64,000 bases of DNA from a virus (IMGVR_UViG_3300009419_001390), one strand, 5' to 3'. Numbered from the stretch's first letter, positions 5,113 through 23,251 are shown. Made by a program: numbers and translations. Notes: a model not told the origin generated them from the sequence alone.

Positions 5113-5291
5113 TGTTAGAAATATTTCAACGAGGTGTTGAAACATTGCGACAGCCCGATCGTAATCCTAGATGTTATGAAATGACAGAACAGGAACGATT
5201 GGATCGTATTCGCGAGTGGAACAATCGTAATGTTTGGAACACCCCAGAACTTGCTGAAGAAGATGAACTGAACTTCTATCAAGGAGCATAG
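5112..5291 (+). CDS. hypothetical 59-aa protein, translationally coupled (TAATG)
   Basis: start overlaps ahpC stop; stop abuts next ATG; not in ORF track (<60 aa). Confidence 0.4.
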   Translation: MLEIFQRGVETLRQPDRNPRCYEMTEQERLDRIREWNNRNVWNTPELAEEDELNFYQGA

Positions 5292-5504: not shown

Positions 5505-5505
5505 A

Positions 5506-6015: not shown

Positions 6016-6026
6016 TTGGAGACAAA

Positions 6027-6446: not shown

Positions 6447-6640
6447 TGCAAGTGAGAGTAAAAGACAATCCAGAAGACATTGGCCGATGTGGTTGTGGTC
6501 GTAGTCCAACCGGCAAGTGTTGTGGCTGGCATGGTCTCACCGAAGATGAATACAAGAATGAACTTGAGCTGTACGAATACAAAAAGCAAGCACAGGGTCT
6601 TTGGAATGACAGTTGCACCAGTGGCAGATCTGAACAGTAG
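6446..6640 (+). CDS. small Cys-rich protein (CGCG...CCGWHG)
   Basis: TGATG coupling to upstream gene; six Cys in 64 aa. Confidence 0.4.
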   Translation: MQVRVKDNPEDIGRCGCGRSPTGKCCGWHGLTEDEYKNELELYEYKKQAQGLWNDSCTSGRSEQ

Positions 6641-6758
6641 GCCTCGTGAATTTCACTAGCCAAGATTAATGATTTCCTGGATATGATTTGACCATTTTTT
6701 GTCGTATAATCTTCATACATACTAAGACATCAACAGTATGTCATTCAAGGAGAAAATT

Positions 6759-6833
6759 ATGAAATGGTCTACACCAACTGCACAAGACATGCGTTTCGGC
6801 TTCGAAATTACCATGTACATTGCAAATCGTTAA
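6759..6833 (+). CDS. pqqA: PqqA-like peptide (coenzyme PQQ precursor), MKWSTPTAQDMRFGFEITMYIANR
   Basis: 24 aa; AAGGAG SD; conserved E-x-x-x-Y core and about 60 percent identity to Pseudomonas/Acinetobacter PqqA ([23 protein letters not shown]) from memory; own terminator. Confidence 0.6.
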   Translation: MKWSTPTAQDMRFGFEITMYIANR

Positions 6834-6853
6834 TTTGTTAACAAAAGTACTAG

Positions 6854-6884
6854 AAAAAACCCTTGTTGATCAAGGGTTTTTTTG
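6854..6884 (+). terminator. rho-independent terminator (AACCCTT-loop-AAGGGTT + T7)
   Basis: follows pqqA-like gene. Confidence 0.6.
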
Positions 6885-6897
6885 TGGCCAAAAACGG

Positions 6898-6926
6898 TTG
6901 ACCTAAATGGCTCATTTTGTTATACT
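6898..6926 (+). promoter_or_regulatory. conserved early promoter box cggTTGACC-17-TATACT (copy 1 of 3)
   Basis: 33/36 nt identical to copy at 51005..51033, related copy at 20594..20622. Confidence 0.6.
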
Positions 6927-6953
6927 GTATGCTAGACACTAAGGAAACGGCGC

Positions 6954-7322
6954 ATGAAAGCATTTTTAGAAATTACAGAATGGGCAGATACCCAGTTCAA
7001 CTGCAATCATGTGTACTGGATGGATGATGCCCGAAACAAGATGCATGCCTATGCTCGTTTTGGTAATCCCAAAGACACTCAGACATTCCGAGCACCAATT
7101 CAAATTGACACCCGCGGACGCAAGTTTGTGGAAGTGCGCAATGACATCTACAACTGGACTGATACAAAAGTTGAGGTCAGTGCCAACCCAACCTGGACCA
7201 TTGAGGGTAGCAAAGGCGCCAAATATGTTGTAGAAAAAGATGGTTCAGTGTATAATTGCACTTGTGCTGGTTTCAAATTCCGCGGTGCTTGCCGCCACAT
7301 CGAAGAGGTTCAAAATGCTTAA
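6954..7322 (+). CDS. SWIM zinc-finger domain protein
   Basis: C-terminal NCTCAGFKFRGACRH fits CxCx(n)CxH; AAGGAAA SD. Confidence 0.45.
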   Translation: MKAFLEITEWADTQFNCNHVYWMDDARNKMHAYARFGNPKDTQTFRAPIQIDTRGRKFVEVRNDIYNWTDTKVEVSANPTWTIEGSKGAKYVVEKDGSVYNCTCAGFKFRGACRHIEEVQNA

Positions 7323-8622
7323 ACCATGGGAAGTAATTGCAGAGCTGGAAGGCGACAACAGCCGCTTGATCAAAGAAGCAGTGGTTCGTCGTGAAAGCGA
7401 AAACGGCAACGATGAACTGTTCCGTGGCTTCCGTGCCGCATATGATGCCATGATCACCTTTGGTGTTAAAAAGGTAGAGCCCAAGACAGGCGACGGCAAG
7501 GGATTAAAAGCAGAACGTTTCTGGCGTGTGGCACAGGAATTGAGTGAGCGCCGACTCACTGGCAATGCCGCACAAACTGAAATCAATGTCATGCGCCAGG
7601 ACGCCACAGAAGCAGAATGGAACATGTGGTATCGACGCATCCTAATCAAGGACATGCGCTGTGGTACCAGCGACAGCACAATCAACAAACATGCCCACGA
7701 ACGTTATCATGTGCCTGTGTTCTCTTGCCAACTGGCACATGACGGTGCCAATCATGAAAGCAAGGTCACAGGTGAAAAGCTGATTGAAGTCAAGCTGGAC
7801 GGTGTGCGTGTGATTACTATTGTGTACCCAAATGGACAAGTAGATCAGTACAGCCGCAATGGCAAAGAACTGGTCAACTTTCCGCATGTGAAACAACAAC
7901 TGGCCAAACATGCCTCACTGTTTGCAGAACCCATGGTCTTGGACGGTGAGATTATGAGTGCAAGTTTTCAAGACTTGATGAAGCAAGTGCATCGCAAGAG
8001 TGATGTCAAAGCCAATGACGCCATGTTGAACTTGTTTGACATGTTGACCCTGCGTGAGTTCCAAGCAGGCGTAGGTGAGCAACGTCAAATTGATCGTAGC
8101 ACTACACTACGAGCCTGGTACGACAGCATTGAAGCACACATGCCAGATGTCACTGTGGTAGGACAAGAGCTAGTGGACTTGGATACTGCAAAAGGTTTGG
8201 CTCGCTTCAAAATGATCAATACGCAAGCAGTGGCAGGCGGCTTCGAAGGTATCATGATCAAAGATCCAGAAGCACGTTACGAAACCAAACGCACAGTGGC
8301 CTGGCTCAAGCAAAAGCCTTTTATTGAAGTGAGCTTGACCGTGGTTGGCTTTGAAGAAGGCACAGGCAAGAACGCAGGCAAACTGGGTGCCTTGATTGTG
8401 GAAGGTGTGGATGACGGTAAGACTATCCGTACCAATGTGGGCTCGGGTCTTACTGATGCCTTGCGTGAAACAATCTGGGGTAGCCAAGCTCAAGTGTTGG
8501 GTAGCATAGTTGAAGTTCGTGCAGATGCCGCAACACAGAATCAAGACAGCGACGGTGCGTGGAGCCTGCGCTTTCCGCGATTCAAAGGCTTCCGTGGTTT
8601 TGCAGTGGGTGAAAAGTTATGA
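7315..8622 (+). CDS. ATP-dependent DNA ligase
   Basis: KLDGVR adenylation motif (KxDG); about 435 aa; alternative upstream start 7240. Confidence 0.75.
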   Translation: MLKPWEVIAELEGDNSRLIKEAVVRRESENGNDELFRGFRAAYDAMITFGVKKVEPKTGDGKGLKAERFWRVAQELSERRLTGNAAQTEINVMRQDATEAEWNMWYRRILIKDMRCGTSDSTINKHAHERYHVPVFSCQLAHDGANHESKVTGEKLIEVKLDGVRVITIVYPNGQVDQYSRNGKELVNFPHVKQQLAKHASLFAEPMVLDGEIMSASFQDLMKQVHRKSDVKANDAMLNLFDMLTLREFQAGVGEQRQIDRSTTLRAWYDSIEAHMPDVTVVGQELVDLDTAKGLARFKMINTQAVAGGFEGIMIKDPEARYETKRTVAWLKQKPFIEVSLTVVGFEEGTGKNAGKLGALIVEGVDDGKTIRTNVGSGLTDALRETIWGSQAQVLGSIVEVRADAATQNQDSDGAWSLRFPRFKGFRGFAVGEKL

Positions 8623-8816
8623 CAGTATCTAGAGTTGTTGCACAAAATAACGAAATTTATAGACAGACAGAAATTAAAAAGTCAGACCAGCGGCATTCAG
8701 AAGGTGTTCAAGACGAGCGTAGAGTCAAACACAATCGAGAAATCGACGAGCAAAAAAGAATTGAAATGAATCAACAAATGAATCGTTCAGGACAAAATGT
8801 AGACAGGATGGCATAA
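8619..8816 (+). CDS. hypothetical highly charged 65-aa protein
   Basis: ATGA overlap with ligase stop. Confidence 0.35.
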   Translation: MTVSRVVAQNNEIYRQTEIKKSDQRHSEGVQDERRVKHNREIDEQKRIEMNQQMNRSGQNVDRMA

Positions 8817-9097
8817 TGGACAAAACAACAAATGAAGTAATGGATATTCTGCAAGAAGAATGTGCAGAAGTAATCCAAGCAGTGAGCAAGATCCGCAGGT
8901 TTGGCATTGACAATCACAAGCCCGGCAAGCCCAAGACCAACAGAGAGCACCTGGAAGAAGAACTGGGTGATTTGTATGCCATGATTGATATCCTACAGGA
9001 ACTGGATATTGTGAGCTGGTCAGGAATTGAAAAGGCCGCAGAAGCCAAACGTGAGAAATTGAAAACTTGGTCAAACATTTTTGAGGTCAAAGCATGA
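8816..9097 (+). CDS. mazG: MazG-like nucleotide pyrophosphohydrolase (small, paralog 1)
   Basis: EECAEVIQAV...EELGDLYAMIDIL EExxE/ExxD helix motifs. Confidence 0.55.
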   Translation: MDKTTNEVMDILQEECAEVIQAVSKIRRFGIDNHKPGKPKTNREHLEEELGDLYAMIDILQELDIVSWSGIEKAAEAKREKLKTWSNIFEVKA

Positions 9098-9545: not shown

Positions 9546-9742
9546 CCTTAGAAGATCTACAACATATCTTTGATCGCCAGATAGAAGAAGGCACCGAGAA
9601 ACTGTACTTCATGCTGGTTGATGGTGCGGCTATGCCTGAGATTTTACGCCACCCTGCAGAGGATCTGGAGAAATTGTTGCCCATGCTATCAAGTTTTCAG
9701 TACGTTGGTTCACCTGCTGGCATACCGAGGTTTACTAAATGA
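9542..9742 (+). CDS. hypothetical protein
   Basis: ORF track, ATGA coupling. Confidence 0.4.
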   Translation: MTLEDLQHIFDRQIEEGTEKLYFMLVDGAAMPEILRHPAEDLEKLLPMLSSFQYVGSPAGIPRFTK

Positions 9743-10110
9743 CCAATGAAATTACAACAGAGATGCTGGACCGCAAGATTGCGTGGTGTGAGCAAAACGC
9801 ATTTTGGGGTCGAGGTTCTGACGTACAGCGTATGCAGGATTTCTACTTTGAAAAGACCCGAACCAGTGTAACCGAGGACTGGCCCGAAGCATTCACATTG
9901 CAGGAACTGGCTGATACTTTGGGTATAGAGCAAGTGCGGTATAGGATCTACTACAGCCAAGACAATCTCACTTGCCGACTGTTTGTGTTCCGCCCTCGTT
10001 GTACCTATTCCGAAGAGCAAAAGATGTTGGCCATGGGATTTGTACCGGCCAAAGATGGCGACACAGAAAACATCCCTGACCATCCAGTAGAGGAAGTAAA
10101 CAATGAATGA
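9739..10110 (+). CDS. hypothetical protein
   Basis: ORF track, ATGA coupling. Confidence 0.45.
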   Translation: MTNEITTEMLDRKIAWCEQNAFWGRGSDVQRMQDFYFEKTRTSVTEDWPEAFTLQELADTLGIEQVRYRIYYSQDNLTCRLFVFRPRCTYSEEQKMLAMGFVPAKDGDTENIPDHPVEEVNNE

Positions 10111-11090: not shown

Positions 11091-11882
11091 ATGCGTATTT
11101 TGACTCTTTCCGTTCTTGCCGCGGCTGTGTTGGCAACAGGTTGTACTCGTATTGAAACGGGTGAAGTTGGTGTGCGAGTTGGTTTTGACCGCCAGGTTCA
11201 GCCAGGCGAACTCATGCCTGGCTCATTCAATCAAGTGTTGATCGGTGATGTGCTCACATTTCCTATCAAGGACGTGAATGTCACATTAGAGAACATGACT
11301 CCTGTGGCCAAAGACAACTCAACCATGAAAGACTTTGATGCAGTGGTTGTTTACAACATCAATCCACAGCAGGTCAGTGAATTGTACGCAACCAAGAACA
11401 AAGCATTCCACGCTGAGTTCAAAGGTGATACCTATGTGATGTACAACTACATTGTACAAAATGCTCGTAACGCTATCTACAAAGCCGCTCGTAAGTATGA
11501 GGCCTTGGACATGGCCGACAATCGCGGTGAAATGGAAAAGTTCATCCAAGACGAGATTGTTCGCAACTTGGCTGAAGAAAAGTTAGACGGTACTATTATG
11601 ATCAGCCAAGTGTTGATTCGTAATGTTGTGCCAGCTGACTCTGTGGTTGAAAGTGCTAACGCATTGGTTCGTTCAAAGAACGAATTGAAGCAGAAGGAAG
11701 TTGAAGTCAAAACTGCTGAAGCCGAATCGCGTCGTATGGCAGCACTGGCCAACAACTCAGGTGCAAGTATTGCATTCATGCAAGCACAGGCCATGTTGAA
11801 CATCTCAGAAGGTATCAAGAACGGTCAAGTGCAGACCATTGTGGTGCCCTCAAACTTCAACGCATTGATGATGCCTAAATAA
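11091..11882 (+). CDS. SPFH/band-7 (prohibitin/stomatin-like) lipoprotein
   Basis: lipobox LATGC; TGEVGVRVGF... SPFH-like core followed by coiled-coil; AAGGAAA SD. Confidence 0.5.
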   Translation: MRILTLSVLAAAVLATGCTRIETGEVGVRVGFDRQVQPGELMPGSFNQVLIGDVLTFPIKDVNVTLENMTPVAKDNSTMKDFDAVVVYNINPQQVSELYATKNKAFHAEFKGDTYVMYNYIVQNARNAIYKAARKYEALDMADNRGEMEKFIQDEIVRNLAEEKLDGTIMISQVLIRNVVPADSVVESANALVRSKNELKQKEVEVKTAEAESRRMAALANNSGASIAFMQAQAMLNISEGIKNGQVQTIVVPSNFNALMMPK

Positions 11883-13892: not shown

Positions 13893-14189
13893 ATGACACA
13901 TCAAACTAAAGCAATTCGCAATTTTGACCTAACTACCAAGCAAGGTAAACTATTCCAAGCCCTGGTACTAAAAGGCGAAACAATGAGCGAAGCCGAAATC
14001 AGCAAGCGTTTTGGCATCAAGAACCCAACTGCTACCATCAGCGTTATTCGTAACCGTGGTTATGCAGTTTACGCAAAAAGCCGCAAAGCCGGTAATGGCG
14101 TTCAGGTAACTGAGTATCGTCATGGCGAAGCCAGCCGCAAGATGGTTGCACTTGCATACAAAGCACAGTCTTTGGGCATCACAGTCTAA
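13893..14189 (+). CDS. hypothetical basic protein, possible DNA-binding
   Basis: AAAGGA SD; Arg/Lys-rich. Confidence 0.4.
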   Translation: MTHQTKAIRNFDLTTKQGKLFQALVLKGETMSEAEISKRFGIKNPTATISVIRNRGYAVYAKSRKAGNGVQVTEYRHGEASRKMVALAYKAQSLGITV

Positions 14190-14206
14190 TTAATTTTGGA
14201 CTAATC

Positions 14207-14233
14207 AAAGGTGCTTTAGGGCACCTTTTTTCT
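14207..14233 (+). terminator. rho-independent terminator (AAAGGTGC-TTTA-GGGCACCTTT + T6)
   Basis: hairpin + U-tract. Confidence 0.6.
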
Positions 14234-14261
14234 TGACCAGAATACCATTATCAACTATAAT
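14233..14261 (+). promoter_or_regulatory. sigma70 consensus promoter TTGACC-17-TATAAT; ATG 7 nt after -10 (leaderless candidate)
   Basis: perfect -10, near-perfect -35. Confidence 0.6.
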
Positions 14262-14267
14262 AGTCAC

Positions 14268-15089
14268 ATGCGAATAAATGTAATTTCTGATCTTCATCTT
14301 GAGTTTGGCGACCTAGAGTTGCCAGGCGGAGATGTGCTGATCTTGTCAGGTGATGTGTGCGAAAGCCGCACCTTGCTCAAGAACAAGTATGACCCAATGA
14401 ACATCATGACTGAAGTAGGAGATCCCAAGCGCCAAGATCGTGCTCAACGTTTCTTCATTGAAGAATGTGCCAAGTACCGCGAAGTTATCTATGTCATGGG
14501 CAACCATGAACACTATCACGGTCGCTATGACAAAACTGTGCATGAGCTCAAGGCCACTGTGCCTGACAATGTGTCAGTGCTGGAAAATGAATCAATTGAA
14601 ATTGATGGTGTGTTGTTCTTGGGTGCCACACTGTGGACTGACTGCAATCGCGGCAATCCCATGTGCATACAGGTGCTCAAGCATGGTATGAATGACTATC
14701 GTGCTATCACCAACAAAGCAGGCGCCATCTACCGCAAGCTGACTCCGCAGGATACCATGGAAACTCACATGCGTACCAAGGAGTATTTCAAGACCATGCT
14801 GGAACTGAATCGTGACAAGAAGGTGGTGGTTTGTACACATCATGCACCCAGCTACCTGAGTGTGCATGAGCACTACAAGCATGATACTGACATGAATGGT
14901 GGCTATGCATCGGACCTGAGCGAGTTCATACTGGATCATGAAAACATCCTGTTCTGGACACATGGACACATGCATGACCCCAGCGACTACATGATCGGAC
15001 AATGTCGTGTGATCTGTAACCCACGTGGCTACAGAGGATACGAACAGCAAGCAAATACATTTGACCCCACTGTGGGATTTGATATATAA
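14268..15089 (+). CDS. calcineurin-like metallophosphoesterase
   Basis: ISDLHLE, LSGDV, GNHEHY, CTHHAP, GHMHD phosphoesterase motifs. Confidence 0.6.
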   Translation: MRINVISDLHLEFGDLELPGGDVLILSGDVCESRTLLKNKYDPMNIMTEVGDPKRQDRAQRFFIEECAKYREVIYVMGNHEHYHGRYDKTVHELKATVPDNVSVLENESIEIDGVLFLGATLWTDCNRGNPMCIQVLKHGMNDYRAITNKAGAIYRKLTPQDTMETHMRTKEYFKTMLELNRDKKVVVCTHHAPSYLSVHEHYKHDTDMNGGYASDLSEFILDHENILFWTHGHMHDPSDYMIGQCRVICNPRGYRGYEQQANTFDPTVGFDI

Positions 15090-15104
15090 ATTTAGGAGAA
15101 CATT

Positions 15105-15680
15105 ATGGCAATCAAAATTACCCTTCGTAAAGCAAACGCTATTCAGCAAAACATCAACGACCTGTTGAAAAGTGTACAGGTCAAGCCTGTGGTTGAACTC
15201 AGCGAGTTTGTTGATACAGTGCAGACTCTGCAGGCCGCCAATGATGCGGTCATGGCCGCCGACGCTCGTCGCAGTGATCTATTGATGGCCCTGTACAGCA
15301 TTCGTGCAACTGTGGGCGTGGCCAACTTTCAAAGTGGCATTGGCAATCGTTTGAGCCACATTGCCTATGTTGACAAACGACTGCAACAACTGGATCAACT
15401 GACCAACGAAACTTCTAAAATGAAGGATCTGGCAATCATCACTGGTCAGTTGGAAAAGATTCGCAATCGTCGTGAAGAACATCGCATGTACGGCTATGAG
15501 AATACCGTGAGCACAGGTGTGCTACAACAAGCACAGATTGACAGCATCAGCGGCATCATGCGTGAGCTGAAAAAGCAAAAGCAAAAGTTAAACGACGAAG
15601 TTCTGGAGCTCAATGTTCGTACAGAAATTGAACTCACAGATGAAGTAGAAGCCGTTCTTGTAAAAGAAGGTATTCTGTAA
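15105..15680 (+). CDS. hypothetical coiled-coil-rich protein
   Basis: ORF track. Confidence 0.45.
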   Translation: MAIKITLRKANAIQQNINDLLKSVQVKPVVELSEFVDTVQTLQAANDAVMAADARRSDLLMALYSIRATVGVANFQSGIGNRLSHIAYVDKRLQQLDQLTNETSKMKDLAIITGQLEKIRNRREEHRMYGYENTVSTGVLQQAQIDSISGIMRELKKQKQKLNDEVLELNVRTEIELTDEVEAVLVKEGIL

Positions 15681-16042
15681 AGAGTAGTGAAGGCTGAAGA
15701 AGCAAGTAAAATTCTTGGAGCAATCCAGGCCAATGAAAGTAGAGGCAGCTGAATCTATAGGGTGCTAGGATTGCCTAGTGTCCTTGACGGGCGTGTGGAG
15801 GATGAGAGTGGCGACTGTGGACTGTGCCTCTTCCAAAAGAAGATTGTGCAATCTGCAAAAACTTAATGGATGACCCGCAAGGGTTGACCAAATCGTACCC
15901 TGGTGCAGTCGAGCCAAGTCATAGGGAATTTGTCCTTTGTTTCTCGGCAAATAACAGGGTCTCTGTTGATCGTCTTTCGTCTGCGTTGTTCTAGAAATTT
16001 TTCTAGTGTCAATTGTCCAGCCATGACTTGGCCACACACCGC

Positions 16043-16363
16043 CTAAACTTCTTGTTGGCTATAACTAAAAGTTGTATTGTGAGGATGGTATAATTCAAAT
16101 TGATCCATTGCAAACTTATGTTCTACTTCTAGCATGGATACAGCAAGTATAAATTTTGACATAGCAACATCATTTTCACATTGTTTGGTCATTACAATTT
16201 CAGTATCAGAAATTTCCACAGTGTCACATATTTTTTGTACTTCAACAAGTAGTTCTTGATTGGCCCGCTGAGCTGCCGCCCATTCTTCTGACACTGGATG
16301 GTCTAAAAACAAAAAAGGTTTGCTGTCCAATTTGGTGCATTTATACTGTAAAATTTTAGCCAT
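16043..16363 (-). CDS. hypothetical protein (one of only two clear minus-strand genes)
   Basis: AGGAG SD on minus strand 9 nt upstream of ATG. Confidence 0.5.
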   Translation of the reverse strand: MAKILQYKCTKLDSKPFLFLDHPVSEEWAAAQRANQELLVEVQKICDTVEISDTEIVMTKQCENDVAMSKFILAVSMLEVEHKFAMDQFELYHPHNTTFSYSQQEV

Positions 16364-16406
16364 AGTAATTGACTCCTATATTGTATTTATGCTAAAGTGT
16401 TGCACT

Positions 16407-16799
16407 ATGGCATATCAAATCTATTCAAATTCTGCACCAACCCTAAGCAATGTAACCCTTAACACAACCTACTCAGGCGCTGGACTATATCAAGTGACCG
16501 GAACTGGTGGGTCTGGTGGGTACACACTAGCAACTGGCAGTACGAACGGCACCTGGGCCAGCATTAACACCGGCACTACCACACCATCAATTCAAGTAAA
16601 AGGCGATGCAGAATTCGAAGGCAAGGTAATGATAAATGGCCAGGACCTAGCAGAAACCTTACAAACCATTAGTACCAGACTGGCCATCTTGGTTCCTGAT
16701 TCCAAACTACTAGACAAATACGAAGCCTTAAAACAAGCATACGAACACTACAAAACTCTAGAGGCACTGTGTGTTGAGCAAAATAACCCTGACAAATAG
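16407..16799 (+). CDS. small Thr/Gly/Ser-rich fibre-like protein
   Basis: GTGGSGGYTLATGSTNGT low-complexity then coiled-coil; start chosen at first ATG after putative promoter. Confidence 0.4.
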   Translation: MAYQIYSNSAPTLSNVTLNTTYSGAGLYQVTGTGGSGGYTLATGSTNGTWASINTGTTTPSIQVKGDAEFEGKVMINGQDLAETLQTISTRLAILVPDSKLLDKYEALKQAYEHYKTLEALCVEQNNPDK

Positions 16800-16983
16800 C
16801 AGTGGCTCATGGTACCTAAACGCTGGTAGAGTCACTAGAGAAGAACGGGCAGAATTGATTGCCTGGTGCTTTGAAATGTGGGGGCCAGGGTGGGGAGAAG
16901 TGGACACCAGTTTGGATACCACTGTGTTTATATTCCCGCGATTGGCGCATGCCAATTGGTTCATGCTTAAATGGGTAGATTGA
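16771..16983 (+). CDS. LKW-family small protein 1 (ends FMLKWVD), GTG start
   Basis: shares W...W...F-x-F...D...F-x-LKW pattern with the following eight ORFs. Confidence 0.4.
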   Translation: MLSKITLTNSSGSWYLNAGRVTREERAELIAWCFEMWGPGWGEVDTSLDTTVFIFPRLAHANWFMLKWVD

Positions 16984-17009
16984 CAAAATAAGTAATAGTA
17001 TGCTATAAT
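16980..17009 (+). promoter_or_regulatory. sigma70 consensus promoter TTGACA-18-TATAAT; ATG 7 nt after -10
   Basis: perfect hexamers. Confidence 0.6.
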
Positions 17010-17015
17010 TGTACT

Positions 17016-17195
17016 ATGACAACCATAATCTTAACAGACGCAGATAAAGCCACCCAAGCCGGCGCATGGGCAGTGAAAAATATTGGATACAAACACTGGC
17101 AACTTAGTTTGGAAAGTCTATTCCATAACACACAGTATCATTTCAAATTCACGCACAAAAAAGATGCCATGTTATTTTCTCTCAAGTGGTCGTAA
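17016..17195 (+). CDS. LKW-family small protein 2 (ends FSLKWS), 59 aa
   Basis: not in ORF track (<60 aa); family motif. Confidence 0.45.
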   Translation: MTTIILTDADKATQAGAWAVKNIGYKHWQLSLESLFHNTQYHFKFTHKKDAMLFSLKWS

Positions 17196-17449
17196 TGAAC
17201 TCAGCACAAACACGCAGACATCGCAGGGCATTCCGTCAATTAGAACATAGTGTACTAATCGACGCTAAGAAACACAGAGACGCCGGTGCATGGTGCCAGC
17301 AACAGTTTGGCAAGCGTTGGGAAGCTATAGGTAAAAACACCGACGGTGCGTGGTGTATGTTTTGGGCAGGTCGAGACAATCACGACAAATATATATTTCA
17401 TTTTGTCGAAGAACGAGATAAACTGATATTTACACTGAAATGGCTATGA
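17195..17449 (+). CDS. LKW-family small protein 3 (ends FTLKWL)
   Basis: TAATG coupling; family motif. Confidence 0.5.
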   Translation: MNSAQTRRHRRAFRQLEHSVLIDAKKHRDAGAWCQQQFGKRWEAIGKNTDGAWCMFWAGRDNHDKYIFHFVEERDKLIFTLKWL

Positions 17450-17898
17450 TTATACCTAACAAACTCAAACTCACACATCGTGTGTTAAAAAATGTTGCCA
17501 AGCCTGTCACCTTTGAGGATGCACGGCCACTCATGCGCTTGGCCACCATGATGCACCAGTTTATGACTGACAGTGATGCAATTGGCTTGGCTGCACCACA
17601 GGTAGGCATCAGCCGCAGAGTGTTTGTGATGAGTGTTAACGGATTGACCAGGACCTGTTTCAATCCTGAATTTTCTGATGCCACAACAGATCAACTGTTT
17701 GAATGCCAGGAAGGTTGTTTAAGTTTTCCCGATGAATATGTACTTACACATCGTCCAAGAAAGATCTGGGCCAGATATCAAGACATACACGGTGACTGGC
17801 ATGAAGAAGAACTAGAAGAACTTGCCGCTGTGTGCTATCAGCATGAGCTGGATCACTTGAATGGAGTAACCATGCATGATCGTCATGATCAAGGATGA
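17440..17898 (+). CDS. def: peptide deformylase
   Basis: GLAAPQVG, EGCLSFP and QHELDHLNG motifs (PDF motifs I-III). Confidence 0.8.
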   Translation: MAMIIPNKLKLTHRVLKNVAKPVTFEDARPLMRLATMMHQFMTDSDAIGLAAPQVGISRRVFVMSVNGLTRTCFNPEFSDATTDQLFECQEGCLSFPDEYVLTHRPRKIWARYQDIHGDWHEEELEELAAVCYQHELDHLNGVTMHDRHDQG

Positions 17899-18118
17899 CA
17901 GCTTGCCGTTTCCTGCACACTGGACACAGGTGTTTATGCCTTGGGAACGCATGCTGAAACAACGCCCTAACTGTCATGACTTGACCAATTGGGTGAATGA
18001 GTATGCAGGATTTGGTAGATATCAGTTGCGTGGACCAGAGTGGAATCCTACCGCAGGTTTTTTGTTTTACTTTGAAGATGCAAGAGACGCAGAGGTTTTT
18101 ATACTGAAATGGCTATAA
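17876..18118 (+). CDS. LKW-family small protein 4 (ends FILKWL)
   Basis: family motif; start may be an internal ATG (17885/17894). Confidence 0.45.
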   Translation: MIVMIKDDSLPFPAHWTQVFMPWERMLKQRPNCHDLTNWVNEYAGFGRYQLRGPEWNPTAGFLFYFEDARDAEVFILKWL

Positions 18119-18315
18119 AGTTTGTTCGAGAAAAAATGACACTACGTGTGGTTGAGGGATTGGCCAACTACAGTAGTCCCGGGTACACACAAAATGTACT
18201 GGATAAAATTGGGGAATGGTGTTATGAACATAGATGTGGCCGGCGAACCAGTTACGATACATTCAAGTTTCGCCACGAAAAAGATATGACAGCATTTTTG
18301 CTAAAATGGGGGTAG
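18109..18315 (+). CDS. LKW-family small protein 5 (ends FLLKWG)
   Basis: family motif. Confidence 0.45.
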   Translation: MAIKFVREKMTLRVVEGLANYSSPGYTQNVLDKIGEWCYEHRCGRRTSYDTFKFRHEKDMTAFLLKWG

Positions 18316-18316
18316 C

Positions 18317-18526
18317 ATGCAGATAGTTACACTTCCGTTCCGGGAAGGCAGCGCAGAACAAGAATCTCACCGTGGCGTGACTATTTCTCGCTGGCTCAAA
18401 GAACAAGGCATTGTCATGGGTCGAGACTACACCTGGCGTGTGGATCAAAACAATCGCGAACTGCAATTCATGTTCAATGGCGATGCAGAAGCCTGGGCAA
18501 CCATGCTGACCATAAAAGAACTATGA
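18317..18526 (+). CDS. LKW-family small protein 6 (divergent, ends LTIKEL)
   Basis: same size and position in array; degenerate motif. Confidence 0.4.
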   Translation: MQIVTLPFREGSAEQESHRGVTISRWLKEQGIVMGRDYTWRVDQNNRELQFMFNGDAEAWATMLTIKEL

Positions 18527-18741
18527 TCACTATTGCTGTTGAACCATTCTACGACAAACTACAAGAGTATCACCGTGACCACAAGATCGATGTGGAGTTC
18601 TGGGAGTGGATCAAACGTGACTACGGTGCGTATCAGGTGTGGATCAAAAGCAATCCCACATCGGTGGGCGAAAAAGAAGCGGCAGGGTTGTTGTTTGGTG
18701 AAGACGAAGAAGCCACGCTGTTTACACTAAAATGGAGCTAG
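18523..18741 (+). CDS. LKW-family small protein 7 (ends FTLKWS)
   Basis: family motif; ATGA coupling. Confidence 0.45.
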   Translation: MITIAVEPFYDKLQEYHRDHKIDVEFWEWIKRDYGAYQVWIKSNPTSVGEKEAAGLLFGEDEEATLFTLKWS

Positions 18742-19043
18742 ATTTAGAACAGGAACTCATGCAGAATCTTGCCAAAGAGATGGCTGAGCAAATAGATCGT
18801 GAGATTATCAACAACTTGCTTTGGGAGGCAACCTTGGAAGAATGCGCAGACTGGACTCCAGTAGAATTAAAATGGGAAAAAGGCAAAGACACAAGTTACT
18901 TTTGGAATGAAGCATGTGCCTGGGCTGTGGAAAACTTTGGACTTCCGGGCGAAAATTATGTAACACATCCCACCGAAGACAACATGTTGTTCTTGTTCAA
19001 AAACAAAGAACATGCTATACTAATGACACTCAAATGGATCTAG
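18732..19043 (+). CDS. LKW-family small protein 8 (ends MTLKWI)
   Basis: family motif. Confidence 0.45.
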   Translation: MELDLEQELMQNLAKEMAEQIDREIINNLLWEATLEECADWTPVELKWEKGKDTSYFWNEACAWAVENFGLPGENYVTHPTEDNMLFLFKNKEHAILMTLKWI

Positions 19044-19044
19044 C

Positions 19045-19284
19045 ATGAAACACCATGAACTCACACATGCAGAATGGAACCGAATCCGTGAACAACTTCG
19101 CGCAGAATTTGGGCAAAGCATGATCATGCTACGAGGTCGCATGCGTGACGAACTGGGATTCATGCCTCGTGAACACCGTCCATGGGTTCCAAAAATGGAT
19201 GGCGGGCACTGGGGTGAAACAGAGATACACATTGACTTTTACACGGAGCAGGCCAGGACTTGGTTCCTACTGAAATTTGTATGA
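19045..19284 (+). CDS. LKW-family small protein 9 (ends FLLKFV)
   Basis: family motif variant. Confidence 0.45.
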   Translation: MKHHELTHAEWNRIREQLRAEFGQSMIMLRGRMRDELGFMPREHRPWVPKMDGGHWGETEIHIDFYTEQARTWFLLKFV

Positions 19285-19739
19285 AGATTACCGAAGAACA
19301 AATTCGTGAACTTGCTGGCATATTTGATGATATCATTACCAGCGACAGCGATGCAGTAAAAAGCGCCTTTCACAGACTGGCATTTTTAAGTTCGCTGGCA
19401 CAACAGAAAAAAGAAGAACCCGGGCCATTCTCTGACATGGTAACAAGACTGGACTGGATGGAACGTGAAATGACAGAAATGAAACGTGACATACAGATAC
19501 TGCAAAACAACGGGCAGAGTGATTTGTTTACCAGTTCTGACAATACCACTGATATGACATTAAATCTCAGTGGAATCATGGCAGGACCTCTCAGTGTTAT
19601 TGGCAGTGGCAGCGGCAGCACAATGCTCGGTGGACATAACTATGTTAACATTGCTCCGCTGACATCAAATGATATTGTGAGTCTTGGTAGCATGGATCTC
19701 AGCACTATCACTTTAACGGACACAGGAAACAACAAATAA
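19281..19739 (+). CDS. hypothetical protein with acidic/coiled-coil N-half and Ser/Gly-rich C-half
   Basis: ATGA coupling. Confidence 0.45.
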   Translation: MKITEEQIRELAGIFDDIITSDSDAVKSAFHRLAFLSSLAQQKKEEPGPFSDMVTRLDWMEREMTEMKRDIQILQNNGQSDLFTSSDNTTDMTLNLSGIMAGPLSVIGSGSGSTMLGGHNYVNIAPLTSNDIVSLGSMDLSTITLTDTGNNK

Positions 19740-20584
19740 TGGCACAACATTCTCAATACTGGAGCAACACCAAATTCGCAGAGTGGATCCGCGGTGTGGT
19801 AAAACCACATGCACTGACCAGCGAAGGTTGGGATGAGTGGAATGACGAAGCACAACGAGCACATCCTGTTCGCTACTGGATTGCTGAAGAAGCACTGGAC
19901 TGGCTACAAGACTTTGTGACTTGGCCTGTAAGGAAACTCTATGATATCAAGTACTATATTAACAATCGTTGGATCACTCGCACTCATGCTCTTACTGCAC
20001 ACCCTCGAAACATCAAAAGGGGCGAGTGGTGTGATGTTGGCAATCGTTTCCTTCCTTGTCTTTTCAATGAGCTTGTGGATTTTGTTGAAGTAGAATTGGC
20101 ATGGTGGCACCTGGTATGGGAAGGCAAAGAACTCAGAGCCAAATACAACATGCCTTGGTGGGCGGCAGGCTGGTGGCGTGTGCGTGTGTGGCGCTGTCCT
20201 CAGGCAGGACTAGACAACCTAGAATGGCAAAGCAAACTGGTCATGGATCAGCAGTACGGAGTGTCACCCACCGATCCAAATTTTGGCAAGCCTACACCAC
20301 AAGCCGAAAAAGCTATAGAAATCTTGACCTTGTATCGCTGGTGGACCGAAACTTATTGCAATCGACCAGACGCACATGATGCCAGTGGGTGGAGTGCAGT
20401 AAGCGAACAGATTCGCAAAGAAAATGGTGGCAAATGGAGCCTAAGTCAACCCAAGAGCAAGGCTCTGCGAAATGCTCAAAATCGTGCAATCAAACGTGCT
20501 AACCAAATTGAAAAATTCTATGAAAAAGAAGATGAGCAAATGATGATCCGTTTGATCCGCATACGCAACGGACTTTGGACTTAA
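19739..20584 (+). CDS. hypothetical Trp-rich protein (281 aa)
   Basis: TAATG coupling; long ORF. Confidence 0.5.
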   Translation: MAQHSQYWSNTKFAEWIRGVVKPHALTSEGWDEWNDEAQRAHPVRYWIAEEALDWLQDFVTWPVRKLYDIKYYINNRWITRTHALTAHPRNIKRGEWCDVGNRFLPCLFNELVDFVEVELAWWHLVWEGKELRAKYNMPWWAAGWWRVRVWRCPQAGLDNLEWQSKLVMDQQYGVSPTDPNFGKPTPQAEKAIEILTLYRWWTETYCNRPDAHDASGWSAVSEQIRKENGGKWSLSQPKSKALRNAQNRAIKRANQIEKFYEKEDEQMMIRLIRIRNGLWT

Positions 20585-20593
20585 AAATGCCGG

Positions 20594-20622
20594 TTGACCA
20601 TATTTCTTTTTTGTGTTATACT
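20594..20622 (+). promoter_or_regulatory. early promoter box cggTTGACC-17-TATACT (copy 2)
   Basis: same hexamers and upstream CGG as 6898 and 51005. Confidence 0.55.
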
Positions 20623-20639
20623 AATTATACTTGTAAACT

Positions 20640-20993
20640 ATGGATACGATAATGGAAATTTTTACAATTTTGGGAGTAGCATGGGCATTGTTACTTGCAC
20701 TGAGATTTATTGTTGAACGTGCAGAATTCAAAAATAAAATTGAATTGGTCAAAACAGAAGCAGACAAACGCATTCGCATTGTGCAACTGGAAAAGATCGC
20801 AACACAAGGCAATTTGATCTTGGCCTATGATGGCGAAAACAACGACTTTCTCGGACAAGGTGCCACAGTGCAAGAAGTTAAAGAATCTATCATGTCTCGT
20901 TATCCTGAAAAATTCTTTATACTTGAGGACAAAGTGTTTTCTAAAATACAAGATCAACTGGAGGTCCAAATTGGAAATTCAAACTCCCGCTGA
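20640..20993 (+). CDS. membrane-anchored hypothetical protein
   Basis: N-terminal TM helix. Confidence 0.45.
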   Translation: MDTIMEIFTILGVAWALLLALRFIVERAEFKNKIELVKTEADKRIRIVQLEKIATQGNLILAYDGENNDFLGQGATVQEVKESIMSRYPEKFFILEDKVFSKIQDQLEVQIGNSNSR

Positions 20994-21327
20994 AGGGATC
21001 TTACTGCACAAGGACTTTGGTGATGCTCGATTCTATACAGTTCCGTGTGACTGCTGTTCAACTGATTGCGCCCACGACGTCTGCATTGAAGCAGATGAAA
21101 CAGGAGTCACGGTCACAACATACACCACACAAAAAACCAACTGGTGGAGCCGAAACCGTTGGCAAATCATTTGGGAACTGCTTACAAGAGGCTATGTCAA
21201 ATATGAAGCCTCCATCATTATGACACCTCAGGCGGCCTACAACTATTCTGCTGTGCTACAAAGTGCTAGCAAGGATGTGGAAATATTCCGTCGTCAACGT
21301 CAAGCCAAAGTAAATTCTAAAAAATGA
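20971..21327 (+). CDS. hypothetical Cys-containing protein (TTG start after GGAGG)
   Basis: track ORF 20827..21327 overlaps upstream gene; GGAGG-6nt-TTG gives a non-overlapping start. Confidence 0.35.
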   Translation: MEIQTPAEGILLHKDFGDARFYTVPCDCCSTDCAHDVCIEADETGVTVTTYTTQKTNWWSRNRWQIIWELLTRGYVKYEASIIMTPQAAYNYSAVLQSASKDVEIFRRQRQAKVNSKK

Positions 21328-21596
21328 TCTACATCAATGTTGGTTTAAGTAACCCCTGGGGCCGACCCTTTGCCAATCTATGGAATCGGTCAGGCCTGAT
21401 CACCGACCACCTGGCCTGGGAAGCAGAGCTGTTGCAAACACGCACACTGATTGGATTTGAATTCAGTTATACTCGGCGACAAAGCCATGCTGGGCTTACC
21501 CTAGAACTAGCTGTGTTTGGTCACAGCATATCTTTCCAAATCTACGACACACGCCATTGGAATCACGTAACTGGCGCATGGGAAGTGCATCTATGA
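21324..21596 (+). CDS. hypothetical protein
   Basis: ATGA coupling. Confidence 0.4.
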   Translation: MIYINVGLSNPWGRPFANLWNRSGLITDHLAWEAELLQTRTLIGFEFSYTRRQSHAGLTLELAVFGHSISFQIYDTRHWNHVTGAWEVHL

Positions 21597-21733
21597 TTGA
21601 GTTTTTGCATGCTGTTGAATGGTTCATCTACGGCGCCATTGTGGGTTATTTTGCACACCCTGTTTGGCATCTGTTGACAAAAATTGTACAAGAAGCTAAA
21701 ATAGCTAAAGATGAGTGGAGAAACCCAAAATGA
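21593..21733 (+). CDS. small membrane peptide (46 aa)
   Basis: ATGA coupled at both ends. Confidence 0.3.
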   Translation: MIEFLHAVEWFIYGAIVGYFAHPVWHLLTKIVQEAKIAKDEWRNPK

Positions 21734-22107
21734 CAATGCACCTTGCACATCCTAGTTTGAGTCTTACTGGCAAAAAGCGCGGTAAGAAAAAGTTTGCATC
21801 AGCGGCTCATGCAGCCAAGGCACGTGAGCTGGATGACAGTTGGTCTGCTCTTATGGCCAAGTGGGGTCCTGCCAAAGTAGCGCCTGCACCCAAGAAACAA
21901 AAATTAGACTACAAACTAACTGTGCCCGCCGAGCGTAGCACACGACACATTCCTAGTAGAGATACTGGTGGTAATGCTACTCTAGCACCTGCCAAGGTCT
22001 ATACTGGCACTATGGTAAAAGGCATTGCTACAATGCACAAGTCAAACGCAGTGCCGGTCTTTTCAGATCAAGAAGCGATTGACATAAGTAAAATGCGCCG
22101 TGGATAA
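21730..22107 (+). CDS. hypothetical basic protein
   Basis: ATG after coupled stop. Confidence 0.4.
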   Translation: MTMHLAHPSLSLTGKKRGKKKFASAAHAAKARELDDSWSALMAKWGPAKVAPAPKKQKLDYKLTVPAERSTRHIPSRDTGGNATLAPAKVYTGTMVKGIATMHKSNAVPVFSDQEAIDISKMRRG

Positions 22108-22135
22108 CGGCTAACATATAGGAGAAGGTGCCCCT

Positions 22136-22357
22136 GTGGCTAAAGAAGGATTTGTTAATGTAACTGGTGTGGTAGAAGAAGTACTGCCCAATGCTACATT
22201 CCGAGTGGCACTCGAAAATAGCCAACATAAAATAATTGCGTATCTTGGCGGCAAATTACGCCAAAATAATATCAAAGTGCTCATGGGCGACACAGTTGAA
22301 CTAGAAATGAGCCCGTATGATTTGTCCCGCGGTAGGATCATATATCGTACTAAATAG
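22136..22357 (+). CDS. infA: translation initiation factor IF-1
   Basis: near full-length similarity to bacterial IF-1 (GVVEEVLPNATFRVALENS...MSPYDLSRGRIIYR); GTG start; AGGAGAAGG SD. Confidence 0.8.
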   Translation: MAKEGFVNVTGVVEEVLPNATFRVALENSQHKIIAYLGGKLRQNNIKVLMGDTVELEMSPYDLSRGRIIYRTK

Positions 22358-22361
22358 TCGT

Positions 22362-22925
22362 ATGAGTACCATACGACAACTAATTTCACTTGTGGAAAGC
22401 AAGGAAAAGAAAGATCTTGTGCAGGCAACATTGCCTTACAAACGCACAGATCTTGATCCTGTGAAATCCAAAGATACCCTGGACTATCACTACGGCACGT
22501 TGTATCGAGGTTATGTTGATCGATACAATGCCGGCGAAGGCGATGCAGACTTCAACGAAGCAGGTGCGTTTCTACACAACATATATTTTACACAACTACA
22601 ATCACCTGTGTCTGGCAACAAACCTGAAGGCGCCAGTGCAGAACTGATCAATCGTAAATTTGGTACATATCTTGATTTCCAAAAACAACTGGAAAAACAA
22701 GCCATGAGCATACAAGGGTCAGGCTGGGTGTATCTCAGCAGATCTGGCGAAATCAAAACAATCAAAAATCATCAGATCAAAAAAGACATTGCACTGCTAA
22801 TAGATTGGTGGGAACATGCCTGGGCACTGGATTATCAAGCAGACAAGGCCAAATACTTAAAAAATATATGGCGTATTATAAACTGGGAAACTGTGAATCG
22901 AAGAATATATGGAGGCATCAAATGA
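22362..22925 (+). CDS. Fe/Mn superoxide dismutase homolog
   Basis: LPY...YHYG...YV N-domain and [13 protein letters not shown]-domain; all four metal ligands (His, His, Asp, His) alignable to E. coli SodA. Confidence 0.6.
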
Positions 22926-23251
22926 ATATACTAGAACTCAATCCTAGTGCAGTGGAAAAAATTCGGGACATCCTGGCCGAGGAAAACAATCCCAAGATTA
23001 AACTGCGCATATTTGTGCAGGGCGGAGGGTGTTCGGGTATGCAGTATGGCTTTACCCTAGACGAAGAAACCAACGAAGATGACTTTACTATGGATTTCGA
23101 CGGTGTTCCGTTGTTGGTAGATAGTATGAGCAGTCAGTACTTACAAGGGGCTACAGTGGATTATAAGGAAGATCTCATGGGGGCAGAATTCAAGATAATC
23201 AACCCTAATGCGCAAACTTCATGTGGTTGCGGTAGCAGTTTCAGCGTCTAA
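22922..23251 (+). CDS. iron-sulfur cluster insertion protein (IscA/ErpA/HesB family)
   Basis: [11 protein letters not shown] and C-terminal SCGCGSSF motifs. Confidence 0.7.

Follow-up and report, generated by a model that had tools for sequence, protein, structure and literature searches.

Between nt 16771 and 19284 of the window, as we call the whole 64,000-nt stretch of viral DNA that was analyzed, nine ORFs of 59 to 103 aa follow one another on the plus strand. A peptide deformylase gene (def; Pfam Pep_deformylase, E value 7e-39) is inserted after the third, and nine of the ten consecutive genes in this block belong to one protein family. The coordinates, lengths, and C-terminal endings given in a preliminary description of the sequence were all confirmed, as was the position of def. 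The genes are designated m1 to m9, and the domain shared by their products is called here the LKW domain.

16771 to 16983, plus strand: m1, 70 aa, GTG start, family member, ending FMLKWVD
16980 to 17009, plus strand: sigma-70-type promoter, TTGACA-18 nt-(TG)TATAAT, 12 of 12 consensus positions
17016 to 17195, plus strand: m2, 59 aa, minimal domain, ending FSLKWS
17195 to 17449, plus strand: m3, 84 aa from the ATG at 17195, ending FTLKWL
17440 to 17898, plus strand: def, peptide deformylase, start at 17440 or 17446
17876 to 18118, plus strand: m4, 80 aa, ending FILKWL
18109 to 18315, plus strand: m5, 68 aa, ending FLLKWG
18317 to 18526, plus strand: m6, 69 aa, divergent member, ending LTIKEL
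18523 to 18741, plus strand: m7, 72 aa, acidic, ending FTLKWS
18732 to 19043, plus strand: m8, 103 aa, net charge -13, ending MTLKWI
19045 to 19284, plus strand: m9, 79 aa, most divergent putative member, ending FLLKFV

The tight packing and the overlapping, translationally coupled junctions described earlier were also found. At three of the junctions (m3 to def, m4 to m5, and m7 to m8), the overlap is 10 nt and the downstream ATG lies inside the Lys-Trp codons AAATGG. The m1 gene and the upstream 130-aa ORF share 29 nt, and the TGA stop codon of m1 falls within the -35 box of the m2 promoter. The ATG at 17195, which matches the orthologues, is a more likely start for m3 than the previously listed GTG at 17186; the protein has a conserved Arg-rich N terminus, MNSAQTRRHRRAFRQLEH, followed by the domain. 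An alternative start at ATG 17885 may give m4 a length of 77 aa. In m8, a 36-residue N-terminal helix precedes the domain. The pI values of the paralogues span 4.3 to 9.8; five of the nine are acidic (pI 4.3 to 5.5), and m2, m3, and m5 have a pI above 9.

Each of the first two members had been credited with a promoter of its own, which is true of m2 but not of m1. The m2 ATG starts 6 nt past the -10 hexamer, and the promoter, with a spacing of 5 to 6 nt, is kept in eight related loci. From the promoter abutting the start codon, we infer that the m2 transcript is leaderless. Near-consensus promoters number seven on the coding strand versus none on the other (~0.9 expected per strand). Since the promoter is of the host sigma-70 type, the array is most likely expressed early; from m2 onward, transcription would start at this conserved promoter and translation would proceed by coupling.

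Profile searches supported the kinship of the nine ORFs as a tandem paralogous family well beyond chance. In leave-one-out HMM searches of all 744 window ORFs, m1 to m5, m7, and m8 were each the top match outside the training set, with E values of 2e-3 to 5e-9 (m1, 1.8e-3; m2, 5e-9; m4, 3e-4). The m6 product ranked first without reaching significance (E value 0.36), and m9 was not recovered among the 744 ORFs. An independent HMM, built from 75 distant, unrelated metagenomic homologues and m2 and searched against 911 ORFs, matched all nine (E values 6e-18 to 1.2e-3). The matches to m1 to m5, m7, and m8 had E values of 2e-6 to 6e-18 (m1, 5e-14; m4, 1.6e-9), the weakest matches were m6 (1.4e-4) and m9 (1.2e-3), and the best window ORF outside the array had an E value of 0.25. 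The assignment of all nine to one family is thus clear for seven members, with m6 and m9 being divergent. The latter is matched by the family profile only in its β3-α2 half and is probably a divergent family member, weakly tied to the others. ORFs at 9739 to 10107, 5103 to 5288, and 57539 to 57721 were weak candidates for further members and never reached significance.

The LKW domain is defined by a match to a profile of unrelated members, the order β1-α1-β2-β3-α2, the motifs W-C-x-E-x-F-G, F-x-F, and D-A-x-x-F-x-L-[KR]-W, and a protein end 0 to 2 residues past the Trp; m6 falls within this definition, with a substituted ending. The family comprises at least 248 clusters at 50% identity (representatives, E value of ≤1e-3). 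Except for three partial and likely spurious matches in long proteins, the matching proteins are 43 to 134 aa long, and their domain lies at or a few residues from the C terminus. A second protein search, with a 76-member profile, retrieved 30 metagenomic proteins only. Pfam-A, PHROGs v4, NCBIfam 20, PADLOC 2.0, and PDB sequences gave no significant match to the shared domain: in the nine window proteins it never scored better than an E value of 0.02 against curated families, and no such family was matched by more than one of 76 diverse members. A DUF3081 match to m2 (E value 0.063) was seen with only one of the 76 and is regarded as noise. The best PDB match to the family profile (E value 0.17) covered helix 1 only, and curated thresholds were reached solely by def and by the N-terminal helix of m8 (Pfam Gp23). 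No description of the family was found in the literature. These phage proteins of ~60 residues form a family that is widespread and had not been described before.

AlphaFold2 modeled m2 with a pLDDT of 94.3 as β1 (residues 2 to 6), α1 (9 to 22), β2 (28 to 35), β3 (38 to 45), and α2 (48 to 58), and the domain in the m8 model (pLDDT, 93.0) is the same, showing the shared fold for which a structure prediction had been suggested. The modeled domain, of ~55 to 60 residues, resembles a ferredoxin-like sandwich that lacks the fourth strand. No Foldseek match to the PDB was better than an E value of 0.16, and the matches in BFVD were uncharacterized proteins from uncultured phages. The conserved residues are W-C-x-E-x-F-G in helix 1, F-x-F in strand 3, and D-A-x-x-F-x-L-K-W in helix 2; from the sequence pattern and the secondary structure, they appear to form the hydrophobic core and to cap the helices. 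Paralogues differ from one another at the remaining positions, in net charge, and in their N-terminal extensions. RRM, ACT, and KH domains and the de novo LHD29-type sheet heterodimers share a likeness of architecture with the LKW domain, with no evidence of homology. Compared with ferredoxin-like and split β-α-β folds, it lacks the fourth strand and shows 2 to 13% identity, and RNP, GXXG, and ligand-binding motifs are absent.

The array is carried by a jumbo phage, which matches to PHROGs families of the clamp loader (phrog_168; E value 1e-73), the baseplate wedge, and virion proteins indicate to be T4-like. Eight of the nine paralogues have orthologues in related phage contigs of 240 to 374 kb; orthologues of m3 are present in closer relatives and absent from loci L001 and L003. 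Other phages carry comparable arrays: L083 has at least 10 members within 5.7 kb, four of the five complete genes of L084 are family members, the 359-kb phage contig L085 has at least 12 members, and an HMM scan revealed at least 8 in the cultured Sinorhizobium phage Phosso. A megablast search with the region found no match among 50,697 phage records, neither m8 nor the distant member P0147 matched the phage collection in tblastn, and the family consensus gave a single match (E value 0.2), which the HMM showed to be the Phosso array. A Phosso member retrieved itself only.

The array had been regarded as a lineage-specific amplification under diversifying selection, and neither part of this claim was upheld. 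The family, with its 248 or more clusters, occurs in tandem arrays in every context examined. For all nine genes, dN/dS is 0.05 to 0.25 at dS of up to 2 (m1, 0.06 to 0.14; m9, 0.11 to 0.16), the same range as for def (0.04 to 0.06) and the flanking genes (0.02 to 0.19); these are gene-averaged values, which could miss positive selection at a few surface sites. Even the divergent m6 is strongly conserved across 27 orthologue clusters. The paralogues are old, distinct orthogroups, and purifying selection acts on each of them.

Gene content within the array is mosaic. The flanking genes, encoding a metallophosphatase and proteins of 191 and 281 aa, are syntenic in L001, L003, and L087 to L091, and L085 retains only the metallophosphatase gene. 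Between these conserved flanks, the number, order, and identity of the members differ among relatives, and the gene order of L091 is rearranged. Within one genome pair, the per-gene dS ranges from 0.13 to 2.4. One exchange could be delimited to the following elements.

17427 to 18118, plus strand: def-m4 exchange cassette, 692 nt, 94.9% nucleotide identity to L003 positions 5988 to 6679
17396 to 17447, plus strand: direct repeat D1, left copy, 3' end of m3
18065 to 18116, plus strand: direct repeat D1, right copy, 3' end of m4

The flanks of this cassette are only 67 to 71% identical to L003 or cannot be aligned, and dS is 0.14 to 0.17 for def and m4 compared to 0.7 to more than 2 for their neighbors. 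Both edges lie inside the LKW-coding 3' gene ends, and the cassette is bracketed by the D1 copies, which are 71% identical over 52 nt and have the same last 14 nt (ACTGAAATGGCTAT). Because the exchange took place at LKW-coding gene ends, def probably came into the array there together with m4. More generally, this clear exchange and the overall mosaicism suggest that the arrays evolve as cassettes of gene size are exchanged and genes are gained, lost, and reordered, with the conserved LKW-coding 3' ends serving as putative recombination joints.

In the hyperplastic regions (HPRs) of T4-like phages, small early genes are shuffled at promoter-early/stem-loop (PeSL) motifs (Comeau, Arbiol and Krisch 2014, PMC4122927). 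The LKW array resembles these regions in being found in a T4-like phage, in its small co-oriented accessory ORFs between conserved genes, in its host-type, putatively early promoters, and in the gene-by-gene variation of content between close relatives. Foreign genes (def and a carbamoyltransferase gene) are likewise inserted in the array, and a terminator-tail-plus-promoter composite precedes the neighboring metallophosphatase gene. This PeSL-like composite, GCACC-TTTTTT-TTGAC, was seen upstream of that gene only, and the space ahead of the m2 promoter is too short for a stem-loop. Unlike T4 HPRs, the array is dominated by one family (nine of ten consecutive genes in the window and up to 12 or more members in relatives), and its promoter lies so close to the start codon that the mRNA would be leaderless. 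Moreover, the breakpoints of the one resolved exchange lie in coding 3' ends rather than in an intergenic PeSL, and no PeSL composite was found at the def-m4 exchange points. The best reading is that the array is an early accessory block of a T4-type hyperplastic region, its early timing being suggested by the promoter.

Small early gene clusters for host takeover or counter-defense include the host-takeover module of SPO1 and the polymorphic internal-protein (IPI) locus of T4. As in these clusters, the array has many short genes in a row, strong promoters for the host RNA polymerase, variability between relatives, and a presumed action on host proteins. However, SPO1-type clusters consist of unrelated proteins and the proteins of the IP locus share only an N-terminal capsid-targeting peptide, whereas the members of the array, with their putative roles, share one folded domain. 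A host-takeover or antidefense role for these putative effectors, as proposed in the preliminary description, is plausible, although searches of Pfam, PHROGs, and the PDB pointed to no antidefense family. The paralogues would act early in infection as small stand-alone binding modules, each with its own host or phage macromolecule, in host takeover or counter-defense. We consider it somewhat probable, taken as a whole, that this is an early accessory array of such modules, shuffled by exchange and kept under purifying selection.

A nucleic-acid-binding role is an unlikely alternative, in which the LKW domain would be a small truncated RRM-, KH-, or ferredoxin-like module regulating transcription, translation, or RNA stability. 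The fold neighbors include the RNA- or ligand-binding RRM, KH, and ACT domains, and a nucleic-acid or small-molecule role is therefore possible; the β3-α2 motif, F-x-F-x-x-E-x-D-A-x-x-F, also resembles the RNP1/helix-2 pattern of RRMs. However, the four-stranded β4-β1-β3-β2 sheet of RRMs, whose face bears the aromatic and basic residues of RNP1/RNP2, was not found, nor was any family-wide conserved basic or aromatic surface motif. The high pI of m2, m3, and m5 favors nucleic-acid binding and the acidity of five members, m8 in particular, argues against it. The N-terminal helix of m3 would bind an RNA hairpin like the N proteins of phages: m3 and ~39 orthologue clusters retain the basic N terminus MNS-x-Q-x-RR-x-x-R-x-x-R-x-L, similar to the arginine-rich motif of lambda and P22 N. 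However, a phmmer search of the PDB with this N terminus did not retrieve N peptides, the boxB-like GNRNA hairpins on the plus strand (8 versus ~2.3 expected) have no recurring sequence, and an Rfam search of positions 14000 to 23000 found nothing.

Some members could instead be related to the capsid, as packaged internal proteins or as early mimics of segments of the major capsid protein that engage host factors or capsid-sensing immunity. Residues 3 to 36 of m8 resemble the helix at about residues 286 to 319 of T2/T4 gp23 (15.1 bits; maximum of 5.1 in 2,600 shuffles). The comparison was made with these phages, since no gp23 hallmark motif (GVQPM, or a second copy of the [IV][DN]RE[IV][IV] helix motif) occurs in the window. 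The protein scores above the gathering cutoff of Pfam Gp23 (PF07068; E value 1.3e-5; 25.3 bits versus 24.4), with the match limited to profile positions 168 to 212 of 376 and the first 44 residues of m8, and it also matches phrog_138. Two genes in related arrays (L085:7252-7608, 34.6 bits, and L083:1022-1327, 26.6 bits) start with the most conserved gp23 segment, T4 residues 93 to 135 ('...VRRAIPNLIAFDICGVQPM...'). In the literature (PMC3014915), this segment is described as the Gol region; its binding to EF-Tu triggers the Lit protease. However, the likeness to gp23 concerns fragments of 30 to 45 residues (34 in the m8 helix) on an unrelated small domain, and binding to EF-Tu or a sensor is purely hypothetical. 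The m8 protein is not a full-length HK97-fold capsid protein (~400 to 520 aa), its remainder being the LKW domain. Only one of the nine window genes has such a segment, and the two Gol-like chimeras are not significant against the family profile. No T4-type capsid-targeting sequence is evident at the N termini, and the sigma-70 promoter favors early over late, structural expression. Taken together, a capsid-related function seems improbable.

An extension of these observations, which we regard as speculative and equally doubtful, is that the LKW domain is a carrier scaffold displaying short N-terminal bait peptides early in infection. The array would then be a decoy library whose variety comes from cassettes exchanged at the conserved gene ends that encode LKW. 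Candidate baits would be the gp23 spine-helix mimic of m8, the Gol-region copies in related arrays, and the Arg-rich N-like helix of m3. The capsid-derived baits would preoccupy host factors or immune sensors, such as EF-Tu/Lit-type or capsid-sensing receptors, that otherwise recognize the major capsid protein.

A role together with peptide deformylase, in the processing of nascent chains or at the ribosome exit, had also been suggested for the family. In the window and in the relatives closest to it (L001, L003, and L087 to L089), def lies within the array, def and m4 move as one cassette, and a weak m4-like ORF lies ~260 nt downstream of the distant def locus L011. However, 77 of the 80 def loci from IMG/VR lack a family member within 6 kb (two have one, and one case is weak), and no def was found in the examined stretches of L083, L084, L085, L090, L091, L092, or the Phosso arrays. 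Two related lineages among the loci examined, L085 and L090/L091/L092, thus have the array without def; L091 has an m4 orthologue without def, and the gene after def in L001 is m5-like rather than m4. L090 and L091 carry a carbamoyltransferase gene at a different slot, and the array is therefore a hot spot for insertion. Co-occurrence largely refutes the partnership, which is very improbable, and def is an accessory passenger in the array, not a functional partner.

That the ORFs are chance or frame artifacts or decaying pseudogene copies, as their short length, the overlaps, and the lack of database family matches might suggest, is refuted to near certainty by orthologues in related contigs and from many independent metagenomes, the low dN/dS, the confident models, and the profile matches from unrelated sequences.

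The genomes of jumbo phages consist mostly of "hypothetical" small genes. Hundreds of these now fall into a single fold family, which has a clear signature, a confident structural model, and a characteristic genomic behavior: tandem arrays, exchange at conserved gene ends, and the capture of auxiliary genes such as def. The analysis also disposes of the supposed functional link to deformylase or the ribosome, which was attractive but mistaken. A further feature of this phage group, independent of the family, is that early transcripts seem to be leaderless. With Phosso, a cultured carrier exists, which makes experiments on the family possible. Should capsid-peptide decoys or RNA-binding regulators turn out to be among its members, the family would represent a new class of early phage effectors.

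Nine small ORFs are present on the plus strand at positions 16771 to 19284, as the preliminary description had reported, and a bona fide peptide deformylase (PDF) gene, def (Pfam E value of 7e-39), lies after the third of them, also as described. The C-terminal endings listed for the nine products were all correct, and their shared domain is here called the LKW domain. The genes and three of their junctions are as follows.

16771-16983, plus strand: m1, GTG start
17016-17195, plus strand: m2
17186/17195-17449, plus strand: m3, alternative starts
17440-17898, plus strand: def, between m3 and m4
17876/17885-18118, plus strand: m4, alternative starts
18109-18315, plus strand: m5
18317-18526, plus strand: m6
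18523-18741, plus strand: m7
18732-19043, plus strand: m8
19045-19284, plus strand: m9
17438-17449, 18107-18118, and 18730-18741, plus strand: AAATGG junctions at the ends of m3, m4, and m7

Alignment of m1 to m9 revealed a helix 1 motif, W-[CA]-x-E-x-[FIW]-G, in which the Trp is invariant, a common F-x-F strand, and D-A-x-x-F-x-L-K-W at the extreme C terminus. When leave-one-out HMMs were run against all 744 stop-to-stop ORFs in the window, m1 to m5, m7, and m8 were each the best nontraining match (E values of 2e-3 to 5e-9), m6 was the best match without reaching significance, and m9 was not recovered. An independent profile, for which m2 was combined with 75 distant homologues from metagenomes, matched all nine (E values of 6e-18 to 1.2e-3; 911 ORFs), and no other ORF in the 64-kb window had an E value below 0.25. 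The resemblance among the nine ORFs exceeds chance, and these searches bear out their proposed paralogy.

With the nine-sequence profile as the query, a word-indexed search retrieved 169 proteins. The 120 best of these 169 matches comprised orthologue groups of m1, m2, m3, m5, m6, m7, and m9 (55% to 100% identity). They are encoded on metagenome contigs that reach 374 kb in length, and not one of the 120 carried a name or a Pfam domain. The orthogroups of m3, m6, and m9 are large, with 39, 27, and 20 clusters, respectively. When the nine genes were compared by the Nei-Gojobori method with their counterparts in the related contigs L001, L003, and L087 to L092, dN/dS was 0.05 to 0.25, with dS ranging from 0.13 to more than 2; the flanking genes and def (0.04 to 0.06 in close relatives) were in a similar range. 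These ratios, together with the conserved orthologues in related contigs, rule out the possibility that the ORFs are frame artefacts. They also argue against pervasive diversifying selection, of which the amplification had been called typical. Each paralogue is an old gene that has been maintained separately.

When 1.84 billion cluster representatives were scanned exhaustively with HMMER, 248 proteins matched at an E value of ≤1e-3. The matches are 43 to 134 amino acids long, with the domain at the C terminus or a few residues short of it, except for three partial matches in long proteins, which are likely spurious. None of 76 diverse members matched Pfam, PHROGs, or NCBIfam, a profile search found no match among PDB sequences, and PADLOC gave no match for the nine window proteins. 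The AlphaFold2 model of m2 has the order b1-a1-b2-b3-a2 (pLDDT, 94.3), and that of m8 consists of a 36-residue N-terminal helix followed by the same domain (pLDDT, 93.0), in agreement with a shared fold. Foldseek found no match among PDB structures below an E value of 0.1, and the only good matches in BFVD were uncharacterized proteins of uncultured phages (best E value, 9e-4; 36% identity). The conserved positions are mostly aromatic or aliphatic or lie at helix caps and, judged from this pattern, look structural. The charge of the paralogues varies widely (pI 4.3 to 9.8).

Some members carry N-terminal additions. The Arg-rich N terminus of m3, MNSAQTRRHRRAFRQLEH (residues 1 to 18; window positions 17195 to 17250), is conserved among m3 orthologues and may resemble the boxB-binding arginine-rich motif of the lambda and P22 N RNA-binding proteins. 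A phmmer search against PDB did not confirm this likeness, and a search for boxB-like hairpins turned up none that recurs. We consider it unlikely that the array proteins bind nucleic acid. Capsid-peptide mimicry, which we regard as less probable still, is suggested by similarities to the T4 major capsid protein gp23. Residues 3 to 36 of m8 (window positions 18738 to 18839) exceed the gathering score of Pfam Gp23 (E value of 1.3e-5) and also match phrog_138. With a four-protein gp23 profile, the same segment scored 15.1 bits at approximately residues 286 to 319 of T2 gp23, whereas the best of 2,600 composition-matched shuffles scored 5.1 bits; the m8 helix corresponds to approximately residues 286 to 319 of T4 gp23. 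Two small array genes in related contigs (L085, 7252 to 7608; L083, 1022 to 1327) start with a copy of the gp23 segment that is conserved best, T4 residues 93 to 135 (34.6 and 26.6 bits, respectively; PDB 6uzc, E value of 2e-3). According to reviews, this segment is the Gol region, through which gp23 binds EF-Tu (PMC3014915).

Judged by its gene content, the source of the window is a T4-like jumbo phage, because a clamp loader and baseplate wedge proteins are encoded. Its close relatives are contigs of 243 to 374 kb, and no near relative was found among 50,697 deposited phages. Wherever the context of a family gene was visible, the gene was part of an array of tandem copies. There are at least 10 members on the 5.7-kb contig L083, four of the five complete genes of L084, at least 12 members and no def on the 359-kb contig L085, and at least 8 tandem members (2866 to 8914) in the cultured 469-kb Sinorhizobium phage Phosso (PV764938.1), all annotated as hypothetical. 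The Phosso array is at the genome start, and between its members lie tRNA genes and an ORF resembling histidyl-tRNA synthetase. As a cultured carrier, Phosso, with S. meliloti as the host, is a possible experimental system.

In the relatives of the window phage, the array slot is kept between a metallophosphatase block and a 281-amino-acid gene, and its content varies. In L001, two members precede def and about ten small genes follow it. In L091, the members run m1, m2, m6, m7, an extra member absent from the window, m4, and m3; this contig lacks def and m5 and has a carbamoyltransferase gene at another position. The L090 and L091 arrays hold this gene (Carbam_trans_N; L090, 6431 to 7375; L091, 6427 to 7371) instead of def, in a different slot; one of the two contigs is a 374-kb relative, and the other is nearly identical to it. 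In L092, the m6-m7 pair is duplicated (2706 to 3136 and 4338 to 4768). Compared to L088, m2 and m7 are 98% and 97% identical, whereas m3 and m9 are 68% and 63% identical, and m9 is 94% identical to that of L091. Divergence across the array is mosaic, gene by gene.

The placement of def had been taken as a hint of a role at the ribosome exit or in nascent-chain processing, and such a partnership is essentially refuted, even though def sits within the array. Only 2 of 80 IMG/VR phage PDF loci have family members within 6 kb of def (L003 and L004, two contigs with identical family matches), a third contains a weak m4-like ORF, and def-free arrays exist (e.g., L085 and L091). Moreover, the segment covering def and m4 (17427 to 18118, 692 nt) is 94.9% identical at the nucleotide level to L003 5988 to 6679, whereas its flanks are 67% to 71% identical or unalignable, and def follows an m2-like gene in L003 but m3 in the window. 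On the left, the segment begins within the final 22 nt of the family gene that precedes def; on the right, it stops at the end of m4. Since a high-identity segment thus lies amid divergent flanks, with its edges in family gene ends, def plus m4 is a cassette that moved by exchange. The link between the array and def is positional, not functional. In the window, the 3' ends of m3 and m4 are direct repeats of each other over 52 nt (17396 to 17447 and 18065 to 18116), including the identical ACTGAAATGGCTAT. The conserved LKW-coding 3' ends look like recombination joints, which suggests homologous exchange at these gene ends. Analogous shuffling, mediated by promoter-early/stem-loop (PeSL) motifs, is known in the hyperplastic regions of T4-like phages (PMC4122927); here, in contrast, the joint is coding sequence.

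The preliminary description had assigned a promoter to each of the first two members. This holds for m2, which is preceded by a sigma-70 promoter matching the consensus at 12 of 12 positions (TTGACA, 18 nt, TG-TATAAT; 16980 to 17009), and not for m1, which has no promoter of its own. The -35 box contains the m1 stop codon, and only 6 nt separate the -10 hexamer from the ATG of m2. Because this gap is too short for a Shine-Dalgarno sequence, the m2 mRNA is probably leaderless. The promoter and a 5- to 6-nt gap to the ATG are kept in eight related loci, with a variable spacer sequence. The coding strand has seven near-consensus promoters and the minus strand has none, with ~0.9 expected per strand. 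The metallophosphatase gene has the same layout as m2 (ATG 5 to 6 nt after the -10 hexamer; 14233 to 14270, against 16980 to 17018 for m2), with GCACC-TTTTTT ahead of its promoter in a PeSL-like terminator/promoter composite. The promoter-abutting-ATG layout is kept at homologous sites in L088, L089, L087, L090, L091, L092, L001, L003, and L085 and would imply early mRNAs that are leaderless.

The proposed start/stop overlaps were confirmed, and the downstream genes are coupled. At the m3-def, m4-m5, and m7-m8 junctions, the next ATG sits in the Lys-Trp codons AAATGG, giving a 10-nt overlap that also occurs in the arrays of L001, L083, L085, and L091. ATGA overlaps of 4 nt join m6 to m7 and m9 to the next gene, and the remaining junctions are overlaps or gaps of 1 nt.

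The auxiliary gene set of the window phage and its relatives is unusual. The window encodes an Fe/Mn superoxide dismutase (SOD; 22317 to 22925), an SPFH/Band-7 protein (11091 to 11882), an ATP-dependent DNA ligase (7240 to 8622; 36% identical to its best phage match), and a radical SAM protein (48829 to 49938). Around the SOD gene, an IF1-like (eIF-1a domain) protein is encoded in L001, L085, and L087 to L089, and an Fe-S biogenesis protein in L001 and L087 to L089 but not in L085. The only clearly opposite-strand gene close to the array (16043 to 16363, minus strand, 106 amino acids) has no family match; its position is kept in relatives, and it diverges from a promoter-like region (16369 to 16398).

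Blocks of small early accessory genes are well known in large virulent phages. The protein family, its breadth, the single-family arrays, and the coding-sequence recombination joints are undescribed in the libraries and literature searched. The outcome is a solid new family rather than a surprise; among the leads, the gp23-fragment chimeras and the apparently leaderless early promoters stand out as the most intriguing. On the best-supported reading, the nine genes encode small accessory proteins that belong to a single undescribed fold family, and their array lies in a hyperplastic region of a T4-like jumbo phage. A host-type promoter would probably drive their early production, each member being conserved for a role of its own, and cassette exchange would diversify the array, the same process having brought def in. 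The likeliest function would be that of a binding module in host takeover or counter-defence.
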